DNA from: an uncultured Methanoregulaceae archaeon
GTDB lineage: Archaea > Halobacteriota > Methanomicrobia > Methanomicrobiales > Methanospirillaceae
Length of the DNA stretch: 64,000 nt
Assembly: GCA_963701095.1 (NCBI GenBank)
Contig: OY969564.1
Span: 1,760,001-1,824,000, forward strand
Direction: 5' to 3'
The translations under genes were made by a program, and so were the position numbers. The stretch's first letter is position 1. Every line of letters starts with the position of its first letter. Positions 7,066-50,790 of the stretch are shown one piece after another. The notes under the pieces were generated by a model. It was not told the origin of the DNA, searched no databases, and saw nothing but the letters and a program-made list of their open reading frames with translations.

Positions 7066-9483
7066 ATGCCCGAAGTGCAACTGAAGGTCGATTCAGCTTA
7101 TCCCGGTGACCAAGGCGGAGGGAAAGCAAGACTTGATCCTGAAACCATGCTCCTTCTGAAGATTTCACCAGGGGATCTCGTGGTAATCGAGGGAAAACGT
7201 CGGACTGTGGCAAAGGTCTGGCGTTCCCTGGTTGAGGACTGGAACCAGCGGAAGATCCGGATCGACAATTTTACCCGTCTTAATGCCGGCGTGAGTATAG
7301 GAGATGCCGTCAAGGTATCGACACTGTCGGAGGAGATCGAGGCGAAACGTGTCGTGCTTGCTCCTCCCGAAGACCTGCCAAAAAAGATGCCGATTGCAAA
7401 TAACCCTCATGTCATTAATGGTCTGCTTGATTTCCCGGTTGTGAAAAACGACTCAATCCCTATTATGCTGGGGATGCCGTTTGTCCAGCCTCAGATCGTC
7501 GCGTTCAAGGTAGTGGAGATCGAGCCTGAAGAGGCCGTGATCATCACAAAAAACACCTCGGTCGAATTCTCTGATAAACCCGCCGCAGGATTCGAAGGAT
7601 TAAAAAGATTCTCGTATGAGGATATCGGAGGCCTAAAAGATGAGCTCCAGAGACTCCGCGAGACCATTGAACTACCCCTGCGACACCCTGAGCTCTTCCA
7701 GAAACTCGGGATTGAACCCCCCAAAGGCGTCTTACTCTATGGTCCGCCGGGAACGGGTAAAACTCTTATTGCAAAAGCGGTGGCAAGCGAGAGCGGGGCG
7801 CACTTCATCTCGATTGCCGGTCCTGAAGTTATCTCAAAATATTACGGTGAAAGCGAACAACGCCTGCGTGAGGTCTTTGAGGAGGCTCGGGAAAATGCAC
7901 CTTCAATTATCTTCATCGATGAACTGGATTCAATTGCACCCCGGCGTGAGGAAGTGACCGGAGAGGTTGAGCGCCGTGTCGTTGCCCAGCTCCTTACCAT
8001 GATGGACGGTCTTGAGGAACGGGGGCAGGTCGTTGTGATCGGCGCGACAAACCGGGTCGACGCGATCGATGCAGCCCTCCGCCGGCCCGGAAGATTCGAC
8101 CGCGAGATCGAGATTGGTGTCCCGAGCGAACCGGATCGGATCGAGATCCTGAAGATCCACACCCGGGGCATGCCGCTTGCTGAAGACGTTAGTCTCGAAT
8201 CTCTCTCCCAGCAGACCCATGGGTTCGTTGGAGCCGACCTTGCAGCCCTCGCCCGTGAGGCAGCTATACGAGCCCTGCGCCGATATCTCCCCGATCTCGA
8301 TCTCGATAAAGCGGAGATCGATCAGGAGACCCTCGACAAGCTACGGGTGTATGCAAGCGACTTCAGGAGTGCCCAGCGTGACGTGGGCCCAAGTGCAATG
8401 CGCGAAGTGATGCTCGAAGTCTCACATGTGAAATGGACAACCGTTGGAGGCCTTGATGCGGCAAAAACTGAGGTCCGTGAAGCGGTCGAGTACCCCTTAA
8501 CGCACCATGACCGGTTTGAAGATCTTGGTATCGAACCCCCACGAGGCGTACTGCTTTACGGCCCTCCGGGGACAGGTAAAACACTTATCGCAAAAGCGGT
8601 GGCAAGCGAGAGCGGTGCCAACTTTATTCCGGTCCGGGGTCCGCAACTGCTCTCCAAATGGGTTGGCGAGAGTGAACGTGCGGTGCGGGAGATCTTCCGG
8701 AAGGCCCGCCAGGTATCGCCATCGATTATTTTCTTTGACGAGATTGATGCCCTTGCTCCAGCGAGAGGGACATCGAGCGATTCACATGTAATCGACAATG
8801 TCCTTAACCAGATCTTAACTGAGATGGATGGCCTTGAAGAACTCAAGGACGTCGTCGTCATGGGGGCAACTAATCGCCCGGACATTGTAGATCCGGCGCT
8901 TCTTCGGGCCGGACGATTCGACCGGCTCGTCTATATTGGTGAACCGACGCTTGCAGACCGTGTCAAGATTATCGGTATTCACTTAGCGTTTATGCCACTC
9001 GAAGGTTCAAATCTCGAAGAAATTGTCGATCTAACCGACGGGTACACTGAGGAAATGCTGGGAGATTTGATCGAGAGTCTCGGGAAAAATGCCACTATAA
9101 CAGCAGCTATGATTAAAGCCGCCATCGTACCGGCAAAAGAGTCGAGCACCGGCGTCTCCAAGGGTGCGAGGCGACGACGTCTTGTCGAGCTTATGCATGA
9201 AAAGAATCTCTCATTCGAAGACCCGGCCCGGGATAGCCAGGTTACCGCCCTGGCGCAGATAACCGAAGGGTTTGTCGGTGCAGATCTCGAATCACTCTGT
9301 CGTGAGGCCGGTATGCTTGCCCTCCGGGAGCAGGGGATTGTCGTGACGCAGAGGCATTTCGAAGAGGCACAAAAGAAGGTCCATCCGACCATGAACGACA
9401 ATCTGCGGGATTATTATAACAAAATCCAGCAGCATTTCAAAGGCGGTCTTCCTGCAAAGGTCCAGCCGCCGGAATACCAGTAA
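7066..9483 (+). CDS. cdc48: CDC48/VCP family AAA+ ATPase
   Basis: N domain plus two AAA modules (GPPGTGKT twice, IDELD/FDEID); start either ATG 7051 or 7066. Confidence 0.95.
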
Positions 9484-9545: not shown

Positions 9546-9878
9546 TTATTCATTTATCTGGCGTTCGTTGATCTTTGCAGCCATGATAAAATCGTTGAGG
9601 GTCAGTCCGCCGGCCGGGTACGAATAATATCCAACCTCAACATACCGTCCCTCCCGCATTGCGAGATCGGGGATATGCCCCTCCTCTGTGGACAGAGTCA
9701 GTACATCATTGAGGAACGCAATGGACTGTTCGCTTTTTTCAAAGGTAAACGTCCGGGTCAGGTGACCGTTTTCAAGCAACCAACCAGGCACTTCCTTCAA
9801 AAGTTCAACGGTATCTTTTCGGGTAATAGGTGGCGAGCCGGGCTTATAGGCTGAGCATTTTCTCTCCGCGAGTTCCAT
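9546..9878 (-). CDS. Pterin-4-alpha-carbinolamine dehydratase family protein
   Basis: LxRTFxF, EEGHIPD, GGLTLNDFIMAAKI; probable start MELAERKC. Confidence 0.85.
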   Translation of the reverse strand: MELAERKCSAYKPGSPPITRKDTVELLKEVPGWLLENGHLTRTFTFEKSEQSIAFLNDVLTLSTEEGHIPDLAMREGRYVEVGYYSYPAGGLTLNDFIMAAKINERQINE

Positions 9879-10053
9879 GCGTATGTGTCCGTCCTGCAAC
9901 CAAAAAAGGTTTTTCTCATAAAACGCACAATTGGCTTATTTTCCTTTAACTTCAGCCGGAAAACCAAGGATCCTGCTTTTCAGGTTACCCTAAACCATCC
10001 TGTCATACCGGCTTTACGTAAACACCTTAACACACCCGGCACAACAGAATACT

Positions 10054-13577: not shown

Positions 13578-15176
13578 CTATCCCATCGGGGGAGCAGACG
13601 GGGCACCCTTGGACTGGGTGATCATCATGTCATCGACACGGATCAGCATAATGGCAGTTTCGGATGCACTTTGAATCGACTGGCGTTTTGAGCGGAGTGG
13701 TTCAAGCACACCCTCTTCGAACATATCGATGATTTCGCCATTGTAGACATTGAGCCCGGCATTCTTTTTCCCTTTTGCATGGGCGTTCTTGAGTGCTACC
13801 AGTTTGTCAATAGAATTGAACCCTGAATTCTCTGCAAGGGTGCGGGGGATGGTTTCATACGCTTTTGCGTATCCCTCGATTGCAAGCTGTACACGACCGC
13901 CGACAGATTCGGCGTAATCACGGATCTTCATTAAGAGCTCGGTCTCGACTGCACCGCCACCGACAACATAGGTGCCATCCTCAATAGCATCCATAACTAC
14001 ACGGGTACCATCAACGACTGCGCGCTCAAGTTCATCGAGAAGGTAATCGCTTGTGCCCCGGAGGAGGATAGTGATGGTCTTGGGATTCTTGCAACCGGAG
14101 ATCCTGGTTATGTCTGTATCGTTATCCTCTTCAACGACTTCAGCATGGCCGAGATCTTTCTTGGTCAGGTCCTCAGGTTTATTTACAATATTTGCATGCA
14201 GGGCCCGGGCGGCGTACTTGAGATCCTTTTCGGGGACATCTTCAACGGCATAGATACCGTTTTTGGCGAGGAAGAACTGGACCGAATCGGCAATGCCCTT
14301 CTGGCAGAATACCACGTTTGCGCCGGTGTCCACAATAGCGTCGGCAAGTTTCTTCAAGGTTGCATTCTCCTGTTCGGAAAATGCTGCAATCTGGTCTGCC
14401 GTGGTAATCTTTATTTTTGCCTTCACCTGGGTCTTTGTGATCTCCATTGGCATTGCAATGAGGGCTACTTTTGCCGAAGTTACCTTCTTTGGCATATCTT
14501 CGCTCACCCGTTTCTTGTCAAGGATAACGCCCCTTACAAGTTCGGCGTCGTCCATGGACCTGCCCTTCTGTTTCTTGATCATCACGTCGTCTTCATCGGC
14601 AAGGTATTTGCCGTTGACTTTCTCAGCGATGCCCATGACTGCATCGACAATAATACCGTCAAGTTTTCCCTTGACAGACTCGATTGACTTTCCGGTAATA
14701 GCGGTGTCAGCAATCTTCAACAGTGTCTTCCTGTCCTTGGGATCGACCTTGGAAGAAAGTGATTCTGTGATCTCGAGCGCTTTTAGCATGCCAAGCCGGT
14801 ATCCTTCTGCGATAACCGTCGGATGAATCCCCTGTTCAAGCAGGGATTCTGCCTGCTCCATCAGCGAACCGGCAATGACAACGGCCGTTGTGGTTCCGTC
14901 GCCGACCTCGTCATCCTGGGTATGTGCCACTTCAATGACCATCTTTGCACCGGGGTGCTGGACGGAGATTTCCTGTAATATTGTCGCCCCATCGTTGGTG
15001 ATGACGATGTCACCAGTGGAACCGACGAGCATTTTGTCCATGCCCCGCGGTCCAAGGGTAGTCCGGACCGCACCGGCAATCGCTTTTGCAGCCATGATAT
15101 TGGAGCGCTGCGCCTCCTTGCCGGTGTTCCGCTCCACATTTTCTCTTAAGATGATAATTGGTTGACCAGATAACAT
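13578..15176 (-). CDS. ths: Thermosome subunit (group II chaperonin)
   Basis: [25 protein letters not shown]. Confidence 0.96.
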
Positions 15177-15213
15177 AGGTGATCCTCTAATGCTGTAAAA
15201 GGTGGAATTGAAC

Positions 15214-15229
15214 TTCTATATAAATCATA
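15214..15229 (-). promoter_or_regulatory. Thermosome promoter: TATA box followed by GAA (heat-shock-type)
   Basis: Minus strand reads ATTTATATAGAA about 40 bp upstream of the thermosome ATG. Confidence 0.6.
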
Positions 15230-15237
15230 CTCTTGTT

Positions 15238-15263
15238 GGTTCTGATAAGTTGGTGGGGGTTTG
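15238..15263 (+). repeat. Left terminal inverted repeat
   Basis: GGTTCTGATAAGTTGGTGGGGGTTTG, preceded by target duplication CTCTTGTT. Confidence 0.92.
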
Positions 15264-15350
15264 GGTTTGCTCGCGGGTGGTGATAGGTAGCGAGTGGTAA
15301 CGCGCGAAATCTGCGTATGATTTAACTTCCCCAGAATTACACCACTCATT

Positions 15351-15554
15351 ATGCCAATGCTATCAGGAGGCCCACCTTACGAATCTCCCGAAATGAGAGA
15401 GATGGTAAAATCACTAATCCAGACCCTTAACGAGAGCAACAAAAAAGTAGAGCAATACAACAAAGCGATGCAGTACATGACTTTGACGTTAGTTGCTTTG
15501 ACAGTTGTATTGGTAATTTTAACAGTGGTTCAAGTGTTAAATCTCATTAAATAA
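15351..15554 (+). CDS. Small coiled-coil plus single-TM protein (cargo)
   Basis: 67 aa with C-terminal hydrophobic helix LTLVALTVVLVILTVVQVL. Confidence 0.65.
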   Translation: MPMLSGGPPYESPEMREMVKSLIQTLNESNKKVEQYNKAMQYMTLTLVALTVVLVILTVVQVLNLIK

Positions 15555-15589
15555 GGTTCTGTTGCATCGCGGTTGATGAAGTGCGAAAA

Positions 15590-16996
15590 TTAGAGATTTT
15601 GTAAGTACATGTTTTTAGACTTCGAGAAATAGTGTTTTGCCGGATTTATTGTTCCCTCTAATATTGCTTTTCGTATGCGTCTAGCTTCTTCTATATGGAT
15701 CAATCGTAATGGTTTGGAGAATTTCGTCCGGTAGAGTACTTCGTCCATAAAATATTCCGGTCGTGGAATCGTAGGCAATCCATCCACGTGCGGGAATTCA
15801 TCCAATTCAGAAAGATGTTTTTTTACATAATCCACATCAGCATCGATACACAAATCGATTATTGGGACTCTCCCGAATCGATTGTTTGGTGAGATTGTTC
15901 CACCAGATCCTTGACTGTATTTCAGATTCCCGTTTAATAACGAACTAAATGCTTGGATGCCGTAATCGGCAAAATATAATCCATACCATGACGATCTCGG
16001 TAATACAACCGGTAACGATGGCGTCTTTTCGTGGCAGATGTTTACAATTTCCGAAATAAAGTTTCTAAGTTGAGTGGATCTATAGGACTCTATCACCTTT
16101 TCATAACCAACCAGTGTCAATGCGACTCCGGAATAATTATTGTATGTGTTGCCTTGGGTGATCCCGGCATTTAACAAAGAGAATACTGTATTTTGGTTAT
16201 TCTGATCGTCGTTATCAAAAATATTTAGATCGATGTACAGATGGAAATAAGGAAGTACCTGTTTGGAGTCCTTTTTCATGTCATTGCAAATTCTTGAAGT
16301 TGCTGCGTTGGATGAGAGTATTCTTCGTTTGATACTATCGGGAGTATCTTTTCTTAATTGCGGGACTGGAGGGATTATTGTGGTGTTCGGGGATTTTAAT
16401 GCCATATTTACATTGTTTGCAACGTACGCCGGATAAAAATCATTTATTCTTGGATCGAGCCACGCCCTGTATACATCACTATTGCGCGTTCCTATTGGGT
16501 CGACCGCTAGAGATTTACTGATGGTAAATAGTTGAGCTTCAACAAAAGGTTGGAAGAATGGGGGAATTAGGGTCATTGCCCCATTCACATCTTTATTCTT
16601 CAATTTTGCTTTAAAATTTTGTTTGTTATTAGGTTTCCCAGACAGTGCATATTCGAGTAACGTCTCCCCATAAACGCCTTTGAAAAATTCAGGCGGGTCA
16701 TAATATATTAAAGAATAATTTTGAATGAAGTCACGAATTGGCATATTACCATATAAGTTTAGTTGATATGACAATGGCTGAACCAGTTCTGACCATCGAT
16801 TTGCCGGGATTAATATTGGATTACCAGGAGGGATCGCCTGCATATTGTCTAACAGTACACTTAGATCTTCCGCTCCTTTAATTTCGGGGAGGTATGAAGG
16901 TGCCGGACAGAATGTATTACCAATTTTAAAACTGGTTGCGGTTTTTGAGGGGTTGTCGTAGCGTAAATGGGGGGTTTGAATTGCAATTTCAGCCAT
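15590..16996 (-). CDS. Uncharacterised 468-aa protein, possible TGT/beta-protein-like TIM barrel (cargo)
   Basis: Long intact ORF whose start overlaps the upstream wHTH gene; fold guessed from alternating beta/alpha pattern and TGT-like termini. Confidence 0.6.
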   Translation of the reverse strand: MAEIAIQTPHLRYDNPSKTATSFKIGNTFCPAPSYLPEIKGAEDLSVLLDNMQAIPPGNPILIPANRWSELVQPLSYQLNLYGNMPIRDFIQNYSLIYYDPPEFFKGVYGETLLEYALSGKPNNKQNFKAKLKNKDVNGAMTLIPPFFQPFVEAQLFTISKSLAVDPIGTRNSDVYRAWLDPRINDFYPAYVANNVNMALKSPNTTIIPPVPQLRKDTPDSIKRRILSSNAATSRICNDMKKDSKQVLPYFHLYIDLNIFDNDDQNNQNTVFSLLNAGITQGNTYNNYSGVALTLVGYEKVIESYRSTQLRNFISEIVNICHEKTPSLPVVLPRSSWYGLYFADYGIQAFSSLLNGNLKYSQGSGGTISPNNRFGRVPIIDLCIDADVDYVKKHLSELDEFPHVDGLPTIPRPEYFMDEVLYRTKFSKPLRLIHIEEARRIRKAILEGTINPAKHYFSKSKNMYLQNL

Positions 16997-17558
16997 ACTT
17001 CATCACCTCATAATTTTGTTTTAGTTCTTTCAATGCCTCGATAAAATAATCTAATTTTTCTACGGGTAACATTACAGCTCCTTCGGACACTTCACCCTCA
17101 AGGATAGAGTAACTTTTCTCTACAATATAGAAATACAATGCATCTCGTTGCCCTTGAGTGATTGTAATATCTAAAAATGGGTTCTCATCTCCCACTCGCA
17201 CCAATCCAATCTGATGAAGAGGTTTCCCGTTCGGGAAATAATGCACAATGTTCCCACTTCGTTTTTGAGAGTACACTTCCCGCAGACCATTTAATTTTTC
17301 AAGATGTTTTTGGATAGTTTTTCTATCAAGGCCTGAAACTTTTGCGATTTCTGATACGGTAATCCCATTTTGCCCAAATTTTTTAACTGTGTTTCTTATT
17401 GTATCTCTAGTGACCAACTCTCGTGCGTCCGGGCTCAAATATTTCCTTTGTTCATTGATTAATTTCAAATCACGTAGATCTGATTTATAGACATTGTCGC
17501 TCTCAAGATCGGATAGTTTAAAATGAACCAAATCATTTGTGACCGCATCTAGTGGCAT
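16989..17558 (-). CDS. Winged-HTH protein with extra C-terminal beta/alpha domain (cargo)
   Basis: GITVSEIAKVSGLDRKTIQKHLEKL helix-turn-helix; GAGGT RBS upstream. Confidence 0.75.
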   Translation of the reverse strand: MPLDAVTNDLVHFKLSDLESDNVYKSDLRDLKLINEQRKYLSPDARELVTRDTIRNTVKKFGQNGITVSEIAKVSGLDRKTIQKHLEKLNGLREVYSQKRSGNIVHYFPNGKPLHQIGLVRVGDENPFLDITITQGQRDALYFYIVEKSYSILEGEVSEGAVMLPVEKLDYFIEALKELKQNYEVMKYG

Positions 17559-17671
17559 GTCATGTACCTCATATGGTGTACATATTTACATATGTTATAT
17601 AAATAGTTATTTATGTTTTTTATGTTTTATGAGTTTTCGGAGTTTTTCAATTATCAGTTTGACGTAATCCC

Positions 17672-18259
17672 CTAGTCTCCACTCCACCGTATCAGATCGT
17701 TGACTAAATTTTCAATAGGTCTGATTTTTCCCCCAAGGTTTGTAGTGCCCTCAAATGCCCAAGTCTGCCTCAAATAAGTATTATCAATATACACGCCGTC
17801 GAGGTAAGTTTCAGCAAGGGATCTGTCTTTTGTTGGTTTAGTGTGGGAACCCCATTCCGATTTCCATACGGGTGATCCTTGTCTACCCTTGTCCGGTGTG
17901 GCAAATACCACTTTTAAATCTGGTATTTGCCCTTTGTAAACCATTGAATAAAATAGCGTTTCGCTGAATCTCCCGTGTAAACTCGTTTTACAGCTTATCA
18001 ACGCGATTGGTTGGTTGTTTTCAAGATTTTTCACTACCAGGTCAACATCCCCCCAAACACGATTGTAACCGCGAACCGGGAGCAAAAACATTCTTCCCAA
18101 ATGTGTATCGTTATTAATTTCAGTATTGTTTAATACGAGCATTCTTTGATTTTCTGCCCGCAATCTCTCATTTACGAGAGTTTGAACGTGTGATTGAAAG
18201 GCATATCCCTCAGTTGTAACATTACTTTGTCTTGATCGGACTGCTTCATGAGTGGGCAT
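17672..18259 (-). CDS. Type II restriction endonuclease, PD-(D/E)xK fold, BsaWI-like
   Basis: GDVDLVV...ISCKTSLHGRFSE catalytic motif; adjacent to a DNA methyltransferase. Confidence 0.72.
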   Translation of the reverse strand: MPTHEAVRSRQSNVTTEGYAFQSHVQTLVNERLRAENQRMLVLNNTEINNDTHLGRMFLLPVRGYNRVWGDVDLVVKNLENNQPIALISCKTSLHGRFSETLFYSMVYKGQIPDLKVVFATPDKGRQGSPVWKSEWGSHTKPTKDRSLAETYLDGVYIDNTYLRQTWAFEGTTNLGGKIRPIENLVNDLIRWSGD

Positions 18260-18317
18260 AATCTCAAACTGAATATTATAATGAGAGATAAAAATAGCTG
18301 CTGGCTTGATTGGCAGA

Positions 18318-19210
18318 TTATGCGGGTAACTCTTGTTTTTTGTTCTTTCGTGTTTTCGCAGGTTTTTCTTTTACATTTGCATAAGCATCAAGTTTGAATT
18401 GCCCAAGTTTCCCCTCTTTTTTCAACCGGTCCAGAGCGATTTTGCAGTACTGGGGATCAACATCAATCCCTATTCCTTTGCGATTGCAGAGGTTTGCCGC
18501 TACAAGTGTTGAACCGCTTCCTAAAAACGGATCGAGAACAACATCGTCTTTGTAACTAAACAACTGGATACACGGCGGGGGAGTTCTATTGGAAATGGTG
18601 CGGGATGGCCAATCCGTTTTTTACTCTCGCCGCTGAAAGTCCAAAGTCCGTTAGTCCAATCCATAAAATCCTGTTTTGATATATCGGACACTTTTGACCC
18701 GCTGGTTTTCTTCCATTCTTTTTTATAGAAAACGACAATTAATTCAACCGGGGCAATAACGTAAGGGGCCGAAGCACTCAGCCACGATCCCCATGCGGTC
18801 CGGCGCGATATATTTCCTTCGTTCCAGACGATTGTAGAATGATATTTGAAACCAACATTCTCTTTTGCTATTGTTGTTAAATCGGCTCCAACGCTTTGCT
18901 GGCCACCTTTGTTTTTATCAAGGGGGATGTTTAAGCAGAATCTCCCGTCGTCTTTAAGCCATTCGTAGCAACGGGACATCCATTTTCTACTGAATTCCTT
19001 ATAGTCCTCATAAGTTAATTGATCGTCATGGGAATTGTATTTTATATCGACGTTATACGGCGGTGAGGTTACTATGAGATCAACAGACCCCGGCTCAATC
19101 TGATCGGTATCAAAAACGCTATCGTTTATTATAAGAAAACTGTCGTTTTTAAAGAGGGTTTTCGGGCTCAAAGATTTCGCTTTTTTGGACTTGTTAGATG
19201 TATTTTTCAT
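18318..19210 (-). CDS. Beta-class N4-C/N6-A DNA methyltransferase (frameshift near 18572)
   Basis: TSPPY and GHPAPFP in one frame, VLDPFLGSGST in another; adding one base restores ELPRRCIQLFSY. Confidence 0.88.
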
Positions 19211-19220
19211 TGGGCCACCA

Positions 19221-19367
19221 TTATTGCAACGGCTCAATTAATACAACTTTCACTTTCTTCCCGACCCAATCAATCGGGACGTAAACCCTCCCCGAATTAC
19301 CAGACACTTTTACCACCTTCTCAACGATCTGATAACCTTCAATCTTGATCTCCATCTTGTCGCTCAT
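19221..19367 (-). CDS. DUF2080-like transposon-associated small protein (48 aa, not in ORF track)
   Basis: Manual translation MSDKMEIKIEGYQIVEKVVKVSGNSGRVYVPIDWVGKKVKVVLIEPLQ; GNSGRVYVP..WVGKKV signature. Confidence 0.85.
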   Translation of the reverse strand: MSDKMEIKIEGYQIVEKVVKVSGNSGRVYVPIDWVGKKVKVVLIEPLQ

Positions 19368-19492
19368 GAAGTAGTTATATTGTAGTCTAAATGTATATAA
19401 TTTTCGCTAAAATTACAATCCTTAATGGCACTATAAGCGCATAGAAAGTATTAATACATTGTAGCTACATATTAGATATATAGTGAAATACA

Positions 19493-20680
19493 ATGGTACG
19501 CCAATTCACTGACCCAAGAGAATTAAGGGGACTGGCAATTCTCAGCCAGCCCGGTACGGTCATCCAGACCGGCAAGAATGTATGGGATGTTCGATCACAG
19601 AGCAAGGATGCCTATTACACCGTAGCCAGATTCTTCCCTGAGGACCGGAAGGCCAAGATCCTTTCTCAGGCAACCTGGACATGCACTTGCCCCGACTTTT
19701 TAACTCGCCATACGACGTGTAAACATCAGTACGCCGTCATGCTCTCGTTAAAACTTGCTGGTGATATAGAGGAGCACAGCACACCCGCACAGGTTGAGGA
19801 ATCTGAGCCAAATATTCTCTGCCCGGTCTGCAAGAGCGAGAATGTTATCAAGTGGGGAATCCGGAAAACAACATTCGGAGAGAACCAAAGGTTCCGCTGC
19901 CATGACTGCGGCCACAGATTTGTTATAGATAGGGGATTCTGCCGGATGAAGAACAGCCCGAAAACGATCACCCTCACCCTTGACCTCTACTTCAAAGGCG
20001 TATCACAGAGGAAAATTGCTGACCTCCTAAAACAGTTTGAGGATGTTAGCGTTTCCCAGCCCACAATCCTTGAATGGATTAAGAAATACTTGAAACTCCT
20101 TGCTAAGTATTCCGAGAAATACAAAGCCGACGTCGGTAACATTTGGCATTGTGATGAGACAACGGTGTTCATCAAGAAGGAGGGGGAAAAGAAGTATTAC
20201 CAGTGGATCTGGAACCTCATGGATGCCAAGACCCGCTACCTCCTTGCCTGCCAAGTCTCGGAAACCCGCTATGTCAAAGATGCACGCAAGCCGTTACAAA
20301 AGGCAAAAGAAGTGGCTCTAAATGTGCCGGACGCGATCGTAACCGATGGACTGCCAGCTTACCCTGAGGCAATCAAGGCAGAATATTATGGACTCGGAAG
20401 AATCCAGAACCCCCACATCCGGCTGAAAGATTTCGAGACAAAGCCAAACAACAATATCCTCGGAAGGCTTAACGGAACCTTCCGTGAGAGGACAAAGGTA
20501 GTGCGGTCATTCGATAGTGGAATTGGAGCTGAGGAGTTCGCTACTGGGATGCAAACCTATTACAATTATATCAGACCGCATCAGGGAATCGGTGGGCTTG
20601 TACCAGCTCAGCTTGCAAATATCCCAATTAATCTGACAGGGAACCGATGGGAAACGATGATCGGATTGGCAGTAAAATAA
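19493..20680 (+). CDS. IS6-like DDE transposase with N-terminal SWIM finger and Zn ribbon
   Basis: CTCPDF..CKH (SWIM), CPVC...CHDC, WHCDET (D221), IVTDG (D285), NNILGR (G where the catalytic E is expected), YNYIRPH. Confidence 0.9.
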   Translation: MVRQFTDPRELRGLAILSQPGTVIQTGKNVWDVRSQSKDAYYTVARFFPEDRKAKILSQATWTCTCPDFLTRHTTCKHQYAVMLSLKLAGDIEEHSTPAQVEESEPNILCPVCKSENVIKWGIRKTTFGENQRFRCHDCGHRFVIDRGFCRMKNSPKTITLTLDLYFKGVSQRKIADLLKQFEDVSVSQPTILEWIKKYLKLLAKYSEKYKADVGNIWHCDETTVFIKKEGEKKYYQWIWNLMDAKTRYLLACQVSETRYVKDARKPLQKAKEVALNVPDAIVTDGLPAYPEAIKAEYYGLGRIQNPHIRLKDFETKPNNNILGRLNGTFRERTKVVRSFDSGIGAEEFATGMQTYYNYIRPHQGIGGLVPAQLANIPINLTGNRWETMIGLAVK

Positions 20681-20688
20681 TTTTTAGT

Positions 20689-21213
20689 TTAATTTGTTTT
20701 TGGAATTGGGATAATGCCTGCTCTTTTCAGAACACTTTCAACTCTGTCAGAATAATTAGGTTTTAAAGCAGTGACTATTGCTACTAATTGCTTATCATTT
20801 GATCCCACGTCTGTGTTGTCTAAAACAAAATATGCTGTGGCAATAAGAGATAATTCTACGGCATTGAATTTTCCAAATTTTGTAACAATACGATCAATTG
20901 CATCGGTTGTTGATTTTGTAAGTTCAACGCCACTTAACAATTCAGTAGAATCGATTTTGATGTCATACCCCTTGTCTTCAATCCAGTCAATTTTTAATAA
21001 TTTAGATTCTCCGGCAAAAGTAACGTCTTGCGAGACTTGATTGGAATACGGCCCATAATGGTACATTTTGTAAGTATAATCTGTAATTCCCTCTCGATTC
21101 AAAAGGAATATTATTTTTTGTATTGCCGTCGTACCAACTTGATGTTTTGTGGAAGTCAGTAATTTTTGGGTAGTATACGTTATAATTTTCAATCTATCTT
21201 TAAGTTCCGTCAT
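20689..21213 (-). CDS. YwgA/DUF4065-like winged-helix protein (cargo)
   Basis: IQKIIFL...YKMYHYGPYS motif; start overlaps the HD gene stop. Confidence 0.7.
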   Translation of the reverse strand: MTELKDRLKIITYTTQKLLTSTKHQVGTTAIQKIIFLLNREGITDYTYKMYHYGPYSNQVSQDVTFAGESKLLKIDWIEDKGYDIKIDSTELLSGVELTKSTTDAIDRIVTKFGKFNAVELSLIATAYFVLDNTDVGSNDKQLVAIVTALKPNYSDRVESVLKRAGIIPIPKTN

Positions 21214-22462
21214 AATCCTAACCTCGCAATTATTTTTTTTGCTTTTTCATAATCCTCAGATTTAACATAAACTCTGGTAAATTTTGTGTTCCCTAATAAA
21301 GACATAATGCGTGAGTAGTGTGAAAGTGGATGGGCATGCCCATCTTTATCAATTATCATGATTCCAGCACTAGGATCAAGATCGTACCATGTTTTTCCCG
21401 GGTCGTCTTTGATGCATTCTATACCTTTACTTCCAAATGATTTAGAAATTTGATCTAGATTTGCTTCATGGTTTTCAGATAGGTTTTCAATTTTATAAAT
21501 GCATTTTAGATGATTTCTTGAACAAATTGATTTACACCAATAATTATTACTCGTAAGAATATTCACCCACACAGAATAATCATCATATTTTACAAATTCA
21601 TTAATTTCAGATGGAGGGGGGTATTCGTTGATGATAGATTTTAGTGCCCGATGAAGCATAATGTCATAAGACCTCCGCACATCGTGAAAAATGACTTGCG
21701 AATATATCTGATAACGCGCAAGTATCATTGCCTCTGCATTTTGCCATCCGTCTTCATTTATCCCAATAACGGGATCATCGGTTTCTGGGTGTGTTCCGAT
21801 TGAAATAGTTCCAAGAATCCTCGCTAAATCATATATTCCATATTTAACACCAATATGGTAAGAATCTCGTAAAAGATAATCGGCTCTATCTGCATCCAAT
21901 TGACTTGAAATTATTGATCCCCAGAATAGTTTCGATGCCCCCGCAGTTGGATCTCTTTCTAGCACTTGCGCAATCTCATCAGAAGAAATACGAAGATTTG
22001 CTTTATTATGGGGGTTTCCTTCTATCTTCTCTTTAGTGGGCCTTTAATCAAAGCAACAGTATAATCTTCATGAGTATAACGTTTATTTCCAGATTTAATT
22101 GGAAAAAGATCCTCCCCGGAGTGCGAAAATGGGCTATGGCCTATATCGTGAAGCAATGCAGCTAATCTAATTACAAATAGCTCTCGCTCCAATCCGATAT
22201 CTTCATACTGGAATTTATCTCTCAAAATATTGTTGTTTTCTTCGTAAGATCGAATAGTGTTAAACATCGCGTCTGCGACGTGCATTACCCCCAAAGAATG
22301 TTCAAAACGCGTGTGGGTTGCTGCCGGATAGACCATCTCAGTTAATGCGAGTTGTTTGATTCGTCTTAGCCGTTGAAAAATTGGATGAGATATAATGGAT
22401 TTTTCGAAATCGGTGAACTCTATGAATCCGTGAATTGGATCGCGAACTTCATTCCAATCCAA
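21210..22462 (-). CDS. HD-domain dNTP triphosphohydrolase-like protein, SAMHD1/YwfO family (frameshift near 22032)
   Basis: RDPIHG, FQRLRRIKQL, HTRFEHSLG, LLHDIGHSPFSH, LDADRADYLLRD; one A missing in an A-run; TTG start after GAGG. Confidence 0.88.
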
Positions 22463-22600
22463 TAGAACGCCTCTTTTTTGAATATATTTCCTGAAAGAAT
22501 ATATTTTTCTATATTGGTTTTGAAAATGTGTCAAATTTATCGGTTCATGGAAGTATGCTTGCGCGACCACCCGTGAGTTATCACTGGGGGTCAAATTTAT

Positions 22601-22626
22601 CGAACCCCCGCCAACCTATCAGAACC
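22601..22626 (-). repeat. Right terminal inverted repeat
   Basis: CGAACCCCCGCCAACCTATCAGAACC, followed by target duplication CTCTTGTT. Confidence 0.92.
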
Positions 22627-22655
22627 CTCTTGTTAATATGCCAGGAAAAAAAAGG

Positions 22656-23261
22656 TCAGTCAATACGGGATATTTTGAAGAGCGAATAGACCGGTACGCC
22701 ATCAATGTCCCGGATACCGCGCTTATCGAAAATAACCCATATTGCTACCGGGACTGCACCATGTTTCTTAAGGTATTTGACAACCTCACGCATCGTGTTC
22801 CCTGACGTGATAACATCATCGACAATAATGCACCGTTCCTTGGCCACAGGTGCAAAGTTCCCGCTGATTGACCCGACGGGATGGTCGCTGGCGTTCTGTT
22901 TTGAGGGATGATAGATAGCCAGCTGGGATGCTTCCTGGACTGATATAACCGTCGCTAACGGGATGCCGGAAAGAGCAATTCCCACGATAACATCTGCGGA
23001 TGCGGAAGCTGGGTCTTTCTGCGAACCATAATACCGGTTCATCAGCATTAAGGCGATCCCGTCAAGCAAAGGAGCCTGGCTGCTTACTGCCGTCCAGTCG
23101 ATGTGGACATCCTTTGGCGCTGCTGCACCACCATTTGCCTGGGTCAAAAGCCAGGTCACTGTTTCCATGGAGAGGGAAAGTTCGTCTGCAATCTGGCCGG
23201 GGCTGTGACCTTCTGATAAAAGAAGTTTAGCTCTGGCGATCAGATCGTCAAGGGAAGACAT
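22656..23261 (-). CDS. PyrE-like protein with N-terminal HTH (GfcR-type)
   Basis: [24 protein letters not shown] plus PRT motif [10 protein letters not shown]. Confidence 0.88.
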
Positions 23262-23281
23262 GCAAAAAGGTTCGTGGTAAT

Positions 23282-23737
23282 CTATTTAAGTTTTCTTTTT
23301 ATGGCCGAACCGCAGACCGGGCATTCGCCGTCTGTTTTAAAATACCGGCCACAGCCGCTGCACCGGAATTTCCACTGGATCTTTTTTGCCTGCCGTTGCT
23401 GGAGTGACAGGACAGGAATGCCTAAGCCAGAAGCCACGTTCTGGATCGCAAAATCGTCTGTAACGATAGTTGCCCCCAGCTCTCCGGCAAGGGCAAGGAC
23501 ATCACAATCGGTACCGGAGATCACCTGGAGATCGCCGGATTTTTCTGCCGCGACCAGAATCCGGGCCCGTTCACCGGCGTCCGGGAGACGCACCTGGAGC
23601 CCGGATTCGGTCAGGAGATCGAAACGGCATTTGCTGGCAAGATCAAGGAGCTCATCCACCACAGATGGTGTTGTGTAGTATTCCCCGGTGAGCGGGTAGT
23701 TCGCAAAAAAAAACGAAGCATCGAGGATGTATTTCAT
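23282..23737 (-). CDS. nob1: Nob1-like PIN endonuclease with Zn ribbon
   Basis: [17 protein letters not shown]...CPVCG. Confidence 0.88.
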
Positions 23738-49638: not shown

Positions 49639-49717
49639 GGTTCTGTCAACTTTATGTGGGATGAATTATTTTCTTTTTTGGTGAAAAGTTACAATCCCCC
49701 ACCAAGTTAACAGAACA
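49639..49717. mobile_element. ~79-bp miniature inverted-repeat element, copy 1
   Basis: GGTTCTGTCAACTT...CCCCCACCAAGTTAACAGAACA; direct-repeat partner at 50712. Confidence 0.7.
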
Positions 49718-49766: not shown

Positions 49767-50570
49767 TTATATCCCTGCAACAGGCACAGTTACCGGCGGT
49801 GCCGGTGGTGCGGCATGATCGTACACGCGGGATAAATAGCGTGCCGAGAAGACTATAATAAGGGGATACAGCGCAAGGTGGATGACCACGCCGAGGTACG
49901 GGATCAGCGCTAAGACTGAGGTAAGAAGGAAGAAGGCGATCACAATTACCATGAGAATAACAAAGGCAAGAATGTAGGATCCTAGGCCGATTGCCCCTAC
50001 GGTATTCAGGAGAGCAAAAACGCGAATCCCCTCGCGGATACTACCTGTGCGGGCAAAGCGGATGCTGCCCGGGATAATGCAGAGAATGGTTACAATTGCA
50101 AAAACCAGTGCGACAAACACAAGGAGCACAAGGAGAAGCCTGAGACCCGGCGATGTCATGCCTCCAAGACTGGTAAAGGCCACGAAGAAGCCGCTTGCAG
50201 CACCAAGGATGATGGTGGTCGGCACTATCCAGAGGAGTTCGACAATCATCAGTTTTATTCCGTCAAGATAAATCTGCCCCCAGTGATCGAATACCGGGGC
50301 GGGTTTTGTGCCGCGGAGGACCCTGACGATATATCCTCCCGTGAAAAACGAGAGGAGAAACCCTGCAAGGATGAGTGCAATGAACTGGACCCACGGGAAG
50401 GCACTCCAGTCAATGGTTTTTCCGGCCTCCAGTTTTTCCGGATCGAACAGGAACACCATCAGAGCAAAGGGGAAGCTGCAGATGAGAAAAACTAGCCATG
50501 TTTTCCAGTTGCCGACAAGGGCGTTCCGGGAATAATCGATCGAATCCGAGATAATTTCTCTATACTCCAT
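49767..50570 (-). CDS. DUF4013-like multi-pass membrane protein
   Basis: GYIVRVLRG..PAP.FD.W...LDG.K, RFARTGS; probable start MEYREIISDS. Confidence 0.82.
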   Translation of the reverse strand: MEYREIISDSIDYSRNALVGNWKTWLVFLICSFPFALMVFLFDPEKLEAGKTIDWSAFPWVQFIALILAGFLLSFFTGGYIVRVLRGTKPAPVFDHWGQIYLDGIKLMIVELLWIVPTTIILGAASGFFVAFTSLGGMTSPGLRLLLVLLVFVALVFAIVTILCIIPGSIRFARTGSIREGIRVFALLNTVGAIGLGSYILAFVILMVIVIAFFLLTSVLALIPYLGVVIHLALYPLIIVFSARYLSRVYDHAAPPAPPVTVPVAGI

Positions 50571-50711
50571 GAATATCGTACGGAGGACTGTATTATAATA
50601 ATAACGAAATTTTCTTTGCATGATTCCATGACCTCCCTCCAGGAAACTGCTCAAAACCTTGCTCTGGAAAAAAGCTCAATGATGAGAAACAGGATGCTGC
50701 TCGGGGAATTT

Positions 50712-50790
50712 GGTTCTGTTAACTTTACAAAGGATGAATTATTTTTTCTTCGGTGAAAAGTTGCAATCCCCCGCCAAGTTAACAGAATCC
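50712..50790. mobile_element. ~79-bp miniature inverted-repeat element, copy 2
   Basis: GGTTCTGTTAACTT...CCCCCGCCAAGTTAACAGAATCC. Confidence 0.7.

Follow-up and report, generated by a model that had tools for sequence, protein, structure and literature searches.

Positions 15238–22626 of the stretch of DNA shown above, 64 kb from an uncultured Methanoregulaceae archaeon and called the window throughout, are a single DNA transposon that was inserted as a unit. The element is 7,389 bp long and has 11 open reading frames (ORFs), with one transposase near its middle and other genes on both arms. We are fairly confident of the reading as a whole: a unit transposon made of a core and passengers, a mode of movement that leans towards copying in, cargo that may serve defence or the upkeep of the element, and, in the window, a copy that is stranded. 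The element entered between the 3′ end of a pyrE-like gene (PRK02277-type) and a thermosome gene's promoter, and 8 bp of target were duplicated on entry.

The target site duplication (TSD) reads CTCTTGTT at 15230–15237 and again at 22627–22634; relatives hold a single copy of this stretch. Between the two copies, the left end (15238–15305, plus strand) and the right end (22558–22626, minus strand) both start with the tip GGTTCTG, each read on its own strand. From 15238 the left end reads GGTTCTGATAAGTTGG..., and the right end runs up to 22626 as ...CCAACCTATCAGAACC. The terminal inverted repeats (TIRs, 15238–15263 and 22601–22626) are identical at 23 of 26 positions; a first-pass annotation had described them, together with the perfect 8-bp duplication, and both are where it placed them. 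A repeat search over 14500–23500 returned this pair as the top inverted repeat (24 nt, 92%). The exact 16-mer of the tip occurs at only two places in the window, which are the two element ends, and allowing up to three mismatches gave four matches, a count that none of 100 shuffles reached. An alignment of 28 ends divides the left end into site 1 (15242–15261), an extra half-site CTCGCGGGTGGT (15270–15281) and site 2 (about 15282–15300), and the right end into site 1 and site 2 (TGATAACTCACGGGTGGT), with a near-copy of CTCGCGGGTGGT in reverse complement at 22566–22577. The subterminal motif CTC(G/A)CGGGTGGT that the same annotation had pointed out is present at both ends and can now be refined: it is one half, the second, of a bipartite site that is larger and repeated.

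A profile made from 26 relatives' ends, and from none of the window's, matched the left end at 15238–15304 (nhmmer, E 2.6e-5) and the right end at 22626–22560 (E 5.7e-12). These were its best two matches in the 2,625,686-bp genome, with the tips exactly at 15238 and 22626. The ends thus belong to the transposase family, and the intervening 7.4 kb moved as one piece. A nested or composite structure was considered and rejected, the best internal match to the profile (15548–15580) having an E-value of only about 0.9–1.2, and an Rfam search of 14800–23000 gave no match. The arms have a GC content of 0.35–0.42, compared with 0.49–0.55 in the flanks and 0.49 in the transposase gene; the low GC of the arms is a foreign composition.

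The site without the element can be seen in related genomes. An 11-kb query across the region was searched against 30 of them; its matches end at about 15244 and resume at about 22645, and the two matches are adjacent in the relatives. All nine congeneric loci examined (L006–L014) are unoccupied: the pyrE-like gene's 3′ end and the region upstream of the thermosome adjoin each other across a spacer of ~36 bp, equal in length within one base to the empty site reconstructed from the window. The first-pass annotation had called the element a unit transposon and proposed this comparison across the pyrE-like/thermosome junction; the empty sites, the duplication and the family-typical ends bear it out.

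Neither an excision footprint nor an excised joint was found in the empty-site loci or in contigs of four short-read runs (one study, two samples that may be the source of the assembly). One candidate excision product, a joint from 15222 to 22646 on a 137-nt contig of run X1, carries 27 other letters and five flank mismatches, and is therefore the empty site of a co-occurring relative rather than the result of excision.

The insertion lies 54–61 bp upstream of the thermosome start codon (window 15176–15237), just outside a conserved TTTATATA (minus strand, ~15219–15226) that is common to all relatives. The 8-bp duplication leaves what lies upstream of this likely TATA box unchanged, so that the chaperonin promoter was probably spared. 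Directly after the equivalent of the 8-bp target, the empty sites of L006, L008 and L012 and of the run X1 contig show tip-like heptamers (GGTTCTG, GGGTCTG, GATTCTG, CGTTCTG). In the window this position of the right flank reads AATATGC. The heptamers at empty sites would fit tip-adjacent targeting, although the occupied site does not keep one.

Related elements and the transposon core

Relatives were collected by scanning one genome per species, which gave 38 loci, 25 of them with a full or nearly full transposase. An end profile made from the first 70 bases of 28 ends was searched against all loci. It bounded 20 of the 25 transposase loci on both sides (the unbounded five are L023, L033, L037, L040 and L048); 19 of these 20 have a perfect 8-bp TSD, and L038 matches at 6 of 8 positions. 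L017 contains a second element that encodes its own transposase and is likewise flanked by a perfect TSD, bringing the bounded relatives to 21 and the perfect duplications to 20. These elements range from 2,614 to 10,983 bp. Their tip is GGTTCTG at 37 of 42 ends and one base off at the other five; in some relatives the tips read GGTTCTGTTGCG. The GGTTCTG-type TIRs and 8-bp duplications that the first-pass annotation had suggested looking for around homologous transposases are thus found, and on cargo-bearing elements.

In each end, ~66 bp long, a bipartite site of ~18 bp occurs twice, the copies lying about 40 bases from each other. The first half reads TGATAAG, TGTTGCG, TGGTGCG or TGATACG and is followed by 3–4 bases and a second half that reads CGGGACTT, CGGTTGAT, CGGGTGGT or CGTGACTT. 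Within an end, sites 1 and 2 are identical at fractions of 0.87 and 0.86 for the two half-sites, compared with 0.66 and 0.64 between elements, figures that are descriptive because the elements are related to one another. We predict that these repeated sites are bound by the transposase.

The transposase of the window (395 amino acids, 19493–20680, plus strand) is the only such ORF in the element. It lies 4,255 bp and 1,946 bp from the two tips, in agreement with the central position (~4.2 and 1.9 kb from the ends) given for it earlier. It comprises a SWIM domain (C64, C66, C76 and H78; Pfam, 25.4 bits against 19.6), a zinc ribbon (C110, C113, C136 and C139), an HTH (helix-turn-helix) as well as an IS6-type DDE core with D221 and D285 (Pfam DDE_Tnp_IS240 over residues 218–358, 44.7 bits against a gathering score of 27). 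The best NCBIfam model is IS6 (NF033587, E 1.9e-32), at 112.6 bits below its cut-off of 125. The IS1 model (NF033558) scores 78.8 bits, below its cut-off of 100, and covers only the zinc ribbon to the middle of the core, while the IS1/IS1595 zinc domain NF050000 is above its cut-off (39.4 bits against 28). A tblastn search of plasmids matched 446 records; among the 25 matches listed, 17 have an IS6-family or IS6-like transposase annotated under the match, and the other eight are unannotated or have no gene there. The best is a clostridial IS6-family transposase of the long zinc-finger type (29.8% identity over residues 110–386, E 3e-26). The IS6 link made in the first-pass annotation therefore holds for the DDE_Tnp_IS240 core, the GGnnnTG tips and the 8-bp TSD, and fails as strict membership.

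In an alignment of 19 family members, the CxC...CxH motif, two CxxC pairs, D221-E222, D285 and N320-N321 are invariant, and E324 is nearly so, with R331 and R333 behind it. When IS240C is aligned to the family, the glutamate of its E-QDH---K motif falls in column 324, giving a family pattern of D-E-T, D and E with arginines at +7 and +9. E-QDH---K has been described as the motif formed by the DDE glutamate and the lysine at +7, with E--F---K-R in archaeal members (Harmer & Hall, PMC6807381; this and the other sources cited by accession were available to us in part).

Beside the transposase, and divergent from it, lies a gene for a small DNA-binding protein of 48 amino acids (19221–19367, minus strand) with an AbrB/MazE-like DUF2080 domain (NF033496, E 1.5e-16), a gene that the first-pass annotation had recognised. 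The 125 bp between the two genes (19368–19492) contain a palindrome (19442–19463) and may act as a divergent control region, and the small protein probably regulates both promoters. DUF2080 is given as an antitoxin domain in the part of PMC10440598 available. The 3′ end of the small gene overlaps the start of the methylase ORF by 17 nt, so that it heads the restriction-modification operon described below while facing the transposase.

Searches with tblastn and jackhmmer found DUF2080 in only three relatives, and it was from this result that the variable type of the small gene became apparent. A small gene is present at the same place in all 22 elements: DUF2080 in four, an AbrB/MazE-like protein in most, a zinc ribbon in two and a ribbon-helix-helix-like protein in two, as assigned from Pfam matches where present and otherwise by eye. 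Accordingly, the core consists of a transposase accompanied by a small DNA-binding protein, and DUF2080 itself is no fixed part of it. The fixed core of DUF2080 and SWIM-Zn-DDE transposase proposed earlier stands for the transposase and for the presence of a small gene; its DUF2080 part applies to only 4 of 22 elements.

Across the order, 28 of 301 genomes have a transposase match (E 1e-20), with 1–4 matches per genome. The counts are 17 of 48 genomes in the genus and 22 of 120 in the family, compared with 3/20, 1/39, 1/55, 0/12 and 0/54 in other families; the transposon family centres on Methanoregulaceae. Public databases hold at least 382 homologues at E 1e-5, which NCBI names only as "DDE-type integrase/transposase/recombinase". 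A distant branch with 33–36% identity also has the GGTTCTG tip and the 8-bp duplication, and its elements L056 (2,584 bp) and L058 (2,937 bp) are on predicted viral contigs.

Cargo and state of the window copy

The genes between the core and the ends are passengers. On the left arm, the DUF2080 gene is followed by an N4/N6 DNA methyltransferase (18318–19237, minus strand; PF01555, N6_N4_Mtase, on both pieces of its split frame; PADLOC MTase_II, E 3.5e-68) and a BsaWI-like type II restriction endonuclease of 195 amino acids (17672–18259, minus strand; PF18643, RE_BsaWI, E 7.5e-11, 42.5 bits against 26.2). Together they form a predicted type II restriction-modification operon with intact endonuclease and methylase frames. 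On the right arm, a predicted phosphohydrolase of the dGTPase/SAMHD1-like type with HD and HD_assoc_2 domains (21210–22594, minus strand; PF01966 and PF19276) overlaps the start of a SocA/Panacea-domain, antitoxin-like protein of 174 amino acids (20689–21213, minus strand). The Panacea domain is just above its cut-off (PF13274, 27.0 bits against 25.7), and PADLOC matched the protein to PDC-M19A (7.2e-10) and to the C-terminal region of DarG (8.4e-9). Scanned alone, the N-terminal piece of the HD protein matched the PADLOC dGTPase model (E 7.5e-12) and stayed far below the NCBIfam cut-offs.

Two of these genes are split in the window, the methylase by a 1-nt deletion near 18572 and the HD gene by another near 22032. 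In all four short-read runs an extra base follows 18572 and another follows 22032. As these bases join both frames, the apparent frameshifts are assembly errors, and pseudogenised cargo was rejected. The genome (86% completeness, single contig) probably has many more 1-nt indels of this kind, and split genes elsewhere in it are to be distrusted.

Further into the left arm, a 468-residue protein (15590–16996, minus strand) overlaps a 189-residue winged-HTH (wHTH) protein (16989–17558, minus strand), the latter with sub-threshold HTH matches. The larger protein had no match in Pfam, NCBIfam or PADLOC, returned unnamed clusters only from the ESM Atlas, and has only 20 homologues, all unnamed. Its AlphaFold2 model scores a pLDDT of 82.4 and a pTM of 0.86. 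The top 50 Foldseek hits were all tRNA-guanine transglycosylases (TGTs), and VIA-align gave Z-scores of 21.4 for ArcTGT, 20.0 for TGT, 18.5 for QTRT2, 17.0 for Cap10 and 13.8 for DpdA, with generic TIM barrels at 14.3 or below. According to the model, the protein has a TGT-like TIM-barrel fold. The same two-gene module is found in the same arm of the relative L018 (49% and 40% identity). Closest to the left tip is a 67-codon ORF (15351–15554, plus strand) with a hydrophobic C-terminal stretch, a small putative membrane protein with only sub-threshold family matches.

In several elements an inward ORF of the right arm starts 7–35 bp from the tip, inside the end sequence (right ends of L015, L016, L017b, L024 and L025; position 22594 in the window). 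The right-arm cargo of the window and the pyrE-like gene upstream of it point the same way.

In the relatives the central core is kept and the cargo on both arms varies. Their ORFs of at least 45 amino acids numbered 153, of which 120 (70 + 50) were scanned with Pfam and 82 with PADLOC, the transposases and most of the shortest ORFs being omitted. At least one PADLOC match at E 1e-5 or better was found in 9 of the 21 bounded relatives. These matches include components of type II, type I/IIG and type IV restriction systems, SoFic, a DarG/PDC-M19A-like protein, a dGTPase (2.3e-55), a weak ZorE-like HNH match, NsnA/GmrSD (3.5e-74) adjoining a RiboL-PSP HEPN protein, and PDC-M30A (1.2e-62) adjoining a radical-SAM protein. 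Pfam added Panacea proteins, further methylases, one dCTP-deaminase-like protein, one nucleoside deoxyribosyltransferase, ParB_N proteins and one M48 peptidase. The variable anti-viral cargo claimed in the first-pass annotation is supported as variable and, by domain names, often defence-like; it is from those names only that an antiviral role is suggested. The cargo most likely acts against viruses, stabilises the element, or does both.

The window copy differs from its family at one catalytic position. Codon 20462–20464 is GGA, placing glycine where the family has its catalytic glutamate (E324G). Glutamate is present at this position in 118 of the 120 homologues listed, and the two with glycine are the window protein and its own alternative-start form. 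No variant at codon 324 was seen in the contigs of the four runs. A PDB sequence search with the transposase gave a weak IS256-type match (E 0.0029) that covers the first two aspartates and not the glutamate. Substitutions of the DDE glutamate abolish catalysis in the transposases and integrases that have been studied. With Gly324 at this position, the resident transposase is very probably catalytically dead.

Elsewhere in the genome there are only short transposase fragments (C1:1542517 and C1:895586) and no second full copy. Two solitary family ends lie outside the window, at C1:819095–819159 (minus strand, genome-wide E 6.4e-5) and C1:679643–679672 (plus strand, E 1.3e-3), with no partner within ~14 kb; these ends and the fragments are traces of earlier elements. 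Because of Gly324 and the lack of another full copy in the genome, the window copy is probably immobile, a stranded element that now forms a fixed defence islet with intact cargo frames. The word "mobile", which the first-pass annotation had applied to it, is thus not upheld for this copy.

Movement, alternatives and stacked elements

In the mechanism we propose, transposase subunits would bind the four end sites and pair the ends, and the target, cut with a stagger of 8 bp, would then be linked to the tips. Copy-in via a cointegrate seems somewhat likelier than cut-and-paste, judging by the analogy of IS6 and IS1. Cut-and-paste nevertheless keeps a considerable share of our confidence: the bounded copies are all simple insertions flanked by a TSD, copy number is low at the 1–4 matches per genome given above, and no directly repeated identical copies of the kind a cointegrate would leave were seen among the loci. 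Against it, cointegrates are formed by IS6/IS26 and IS1, the catalogued families that come nearest (PMC6807381, PMC7986276), and the searches described above turned up neither an excision footprint nor an excised joint. That the window holds no single transposon at all, and instead chance repeats around an island or an island built by an integrase, a Tn7-like element or two insertion sequences (ISs) as a composite, is an idea to which we give almost no credence. The size of the element and its central transposase are unusual for an IS. The Pfam scan, however, showed no integrase, resolvase or TnsABC-type gene inside it, there is one transposase and no internal family end, and the same architecture recurs with a perfect TSD in 20 of 21 relatives; the empty sites and the match of the blind profile to the tips contradict it too.

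Whether the passengers defend the host or hold the element in place is a closer matter. They could be addiction or stabilisation devices, such that the endonuclease or the HD enzyme would be set free if the element were lost, and the lineage would thereby retain the transposon; as a replacement for host defence we regard this as possible, if doubtful. The cargo has pairs of a suitable kind (methylase with endonuclease, enzyme with Panacea antitoxin-like protein), the small gene beside the transposase is antitoxin-like (AbrB/MazE fold family; DUF2080, PMC10440598), and the window copy persists despite its disabled transposase. On the other side, restriction-modification, dGTPase, dCTP-deaminase-like, GmrSD/NsnA, SoFic and PDC-M30A are all catalogued as anti-phage in PADLOC, and the two roles are compatible. 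For the restriction-modification and Panacea modules, going by domain names, addiction and defence are equally good readings. It is unlikely that the window copy still moves, either because Gly324 is tolerated or because a related transposase brought in by another replicon acts on it in trans. In favour of movement, neither end is damaged, both match the family profile with good scores, and related elements occur on predicted viral contigs and in co-occurring populations. Against it, only the window protein has glycine in place of the glutamate among the homologues listed, DDE glutamate substitutions are inactivating elsewhere, and the genome has no other full copy. The end sites, moreover, co-vary with the element, so that a foreign transposase may not recognise the window's ends.

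Several points weigh against our reading of a defence-carrying, IS6-type unit transposon with a disabled transposase. The transposase misses the IS6 equivalog cut-off, and catalogued archaeal "IS6" elements have been argued to be a separate family (Harmer & Hall, PMC6807381). The catalytic role of E324 rests on motif alignment, not on a structure. PADLOC gave single-protein hidden Markov model matches only, with none for the TGT-like protein, the wHTH protein, the endonuclease or the HD_assoc piece, and 9 of the 21 relatives have no recognisable defence-type domain. Most relatives are metagenome-assembled contigs, and the four short-read runs are not independent.

The relatives also show elements next to one another. 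At nine junctions in 8 of the 38 loci, the tips of neighbouring elements are exactly 8 bp apart, and the spacer is the target duplication (L016 7818/7827; L017 8289/8298 and 12750/12759; L020 12642/12651; L025 3551/3560; L026 11438/11447; L029 977/986; L031 7490/7499; L034 13838/13847). The abutting neighbours are often of different subtypes, and some have their own transposase. L017 has three elements with a common ATTTTAGC, and one further junction, at L019, has a 39-bp spacer. This arrangement suggests that insertion directly beside a resident GGTTCTG tip stacks elements.

Transposase remnants are almost always C-terminal (from residues 260–353 to 395) and come with a right arm and a right end (L017 7398–7523; L022 3105–3257; L039; L041–L050); N-terminal remnants are rare. 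A single hotspot for these remnants was rejected, the breakpoints being heterogeneous. The remnant at L022 has on either side the 8 bp that also flank its intact neighbour. In L015, an 8-kb relative, the left arm has two small regulator-type genes (7913–8110 and 9702–9884) and two methylases, a doubling expected if two elements had merged with the loss of one core and a possible route of cargo accretion.

Elsewhere in the window, two units of ~78 bp (49639–49717 and 50712–50789) resemble miniature inverted-repeat transposable elements, with the form GGTTCTGT[CT]AACTT ... AAGTTAACAGAA[CT]. Two repeat blocks span them, in which they are 89% and 82% alike. They flank a DUF4013 gene (49767–50654) and have tips similar to the ones in the distant L058-type branch; a clean duplication was seen at neither.

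A bolder proposal, which we offer as tentative, is that an uncatalogued lineage of the IS6/IS1 superfamily builds defence islands in methanogens by landing exactly 8 bp from resident GGTTCTG tips, so that elements come to be stacked end to end and their cargo can later merge. That cargo would include an undescribed defence system, a TGT-fold protein with a wHTH partner that modifies nucleic acids or exchanges bases.

IS6-type elements are known as very small ISs, whose passengers are moved by paired copies only. In this family, an IS6-type core would drive single, bounded elements of 2.6–11 kb, with which genes of the restriction, nucleotide-depletion and toxin-antitoxin types pass between methanogen genomes. 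Such elements would be a concrete vehicle, defined by its sequence, for the exchange of archaeal defence genes, for which vehicles are poorly known. They also yield a rule for finding others of their kind, which gene-level annotation misses: a tip reading GGTTCTG, two sites in each end that co-vary, and a duplication of 8 bp. Unannotated passengers such as the TGT-fold/wHTH pair become enriched candidates for new defence systems. Tip-adjacent stacking, if true, would be a mechanism for building defence islands, and a disabled transposase beside intact cargo would illustrate how a mobile cassette turns into a fixed host asset.

Comparison with known systems

We then asked which known elements the transposon resembles. 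No description of this transposon family was found in the literature searched, a single library that included the available part of PMC13343696. We take the ISMhu11 subgroup (IS1 in ISfinder, from a Methanomicrobiales host, up to ~4.6 kb) to be a candidate, its identity with the family being neither shown nor excluded. If the two are the same, the family is already catalogued, and its cargo, end structure and arrays may still be undescribed.

With IS6/IS26 the family shares a DDE_Tnp_IS240 core marked by D-E-T, D and E, the last followed at +7 by a basic residue. The complete triad with K/R at +7 is present in the family (D221, D285, E324 and R331) and not in the window copy (G324). The nearest IS6/IS26 groups are the long clostridial zinc-finger clade (clade VII/h) and the archaeal "IS6" clades. 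The tips, with GG at the start and G at position 7, and the 8-bp TSD are likewise shared, GGnnnTG tips and 8-bp TSDs being IS6/IS1 features (PMC6807381; Varani et al., PMC7986276). Unlike IS6, the family has an extra SWIM domain and a small divergent regulator gene, lacks the bacterial signature E-DH---K, and has two-site ends of ~66 bp, compared with inverted repeats of 14–20 bp in IS6 (PMC7986276). Compact IS6 elements have one ORF in about 0.7–1.8 kb, whereas these measure 2.6–11 kb (2,614 bp in the smallest relative) and have their passengers inside one pair of ends. The available part of Varani et al. (PMC7986276) records a single IS6 member with a passenger, ISDsp3. As in IS1, there is an N-terminal zinc-binding domain of the IS1/IS1595 type and GGnnnTG ends, which are common to IS1 and IS6 (Harmer & Hall, PMC6807381), and the IS1 TSD is 8–9 bp. 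What sets the family apart from IS1 is the score of the IS1 model, which is below that of the IS6 model and also below its own cut-off.

The TIM-barrel fold modelled for the 468-residue cargo protein is like that of the TGT superfamily (ArcTGT, bacterial TGT, DpdA and Cap10). The protein differs from that superfamily in its identity of 9–10%, the lack of a Pfam match and its wHTH partner, and the CxCxxC...H zinc motif is absent among the invariant residues of its family.

IS30, IS911 and IS21 insert next to resident inverted repeats. As with these, new elements among our relatives stand beside a resident tip with a spacer of TSD length; unlike these, different family members abut rather than dimers of one IS, and the window copy has no neighbour.

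Defence cargo is known in Tn7-like transposons (Benler et al. 2021, PMC8649781), which are also single, end-delimited elements with variable, often defence-type passengers. The family differs from them in its 8-bp rather than 5-bp TSD, its lack of a dedicated attachment site and its one small DDE transposase, from a different branch of the superfamily. Among the 14 ORFs scanned there was no large TnpA, resolvase or TnsA/B/C/D-type domain of the Tn3 or Tn7 kind, a TnsD HTH match being sub-threshold (E 0.002). With passengers inside one pair of ends, one transposase and flanking TSDs, as in a passenger-carrying IS (tIS) or unit transposon, the family is an IS6/IS1-like passenger-carrying IS, of a kind known already.

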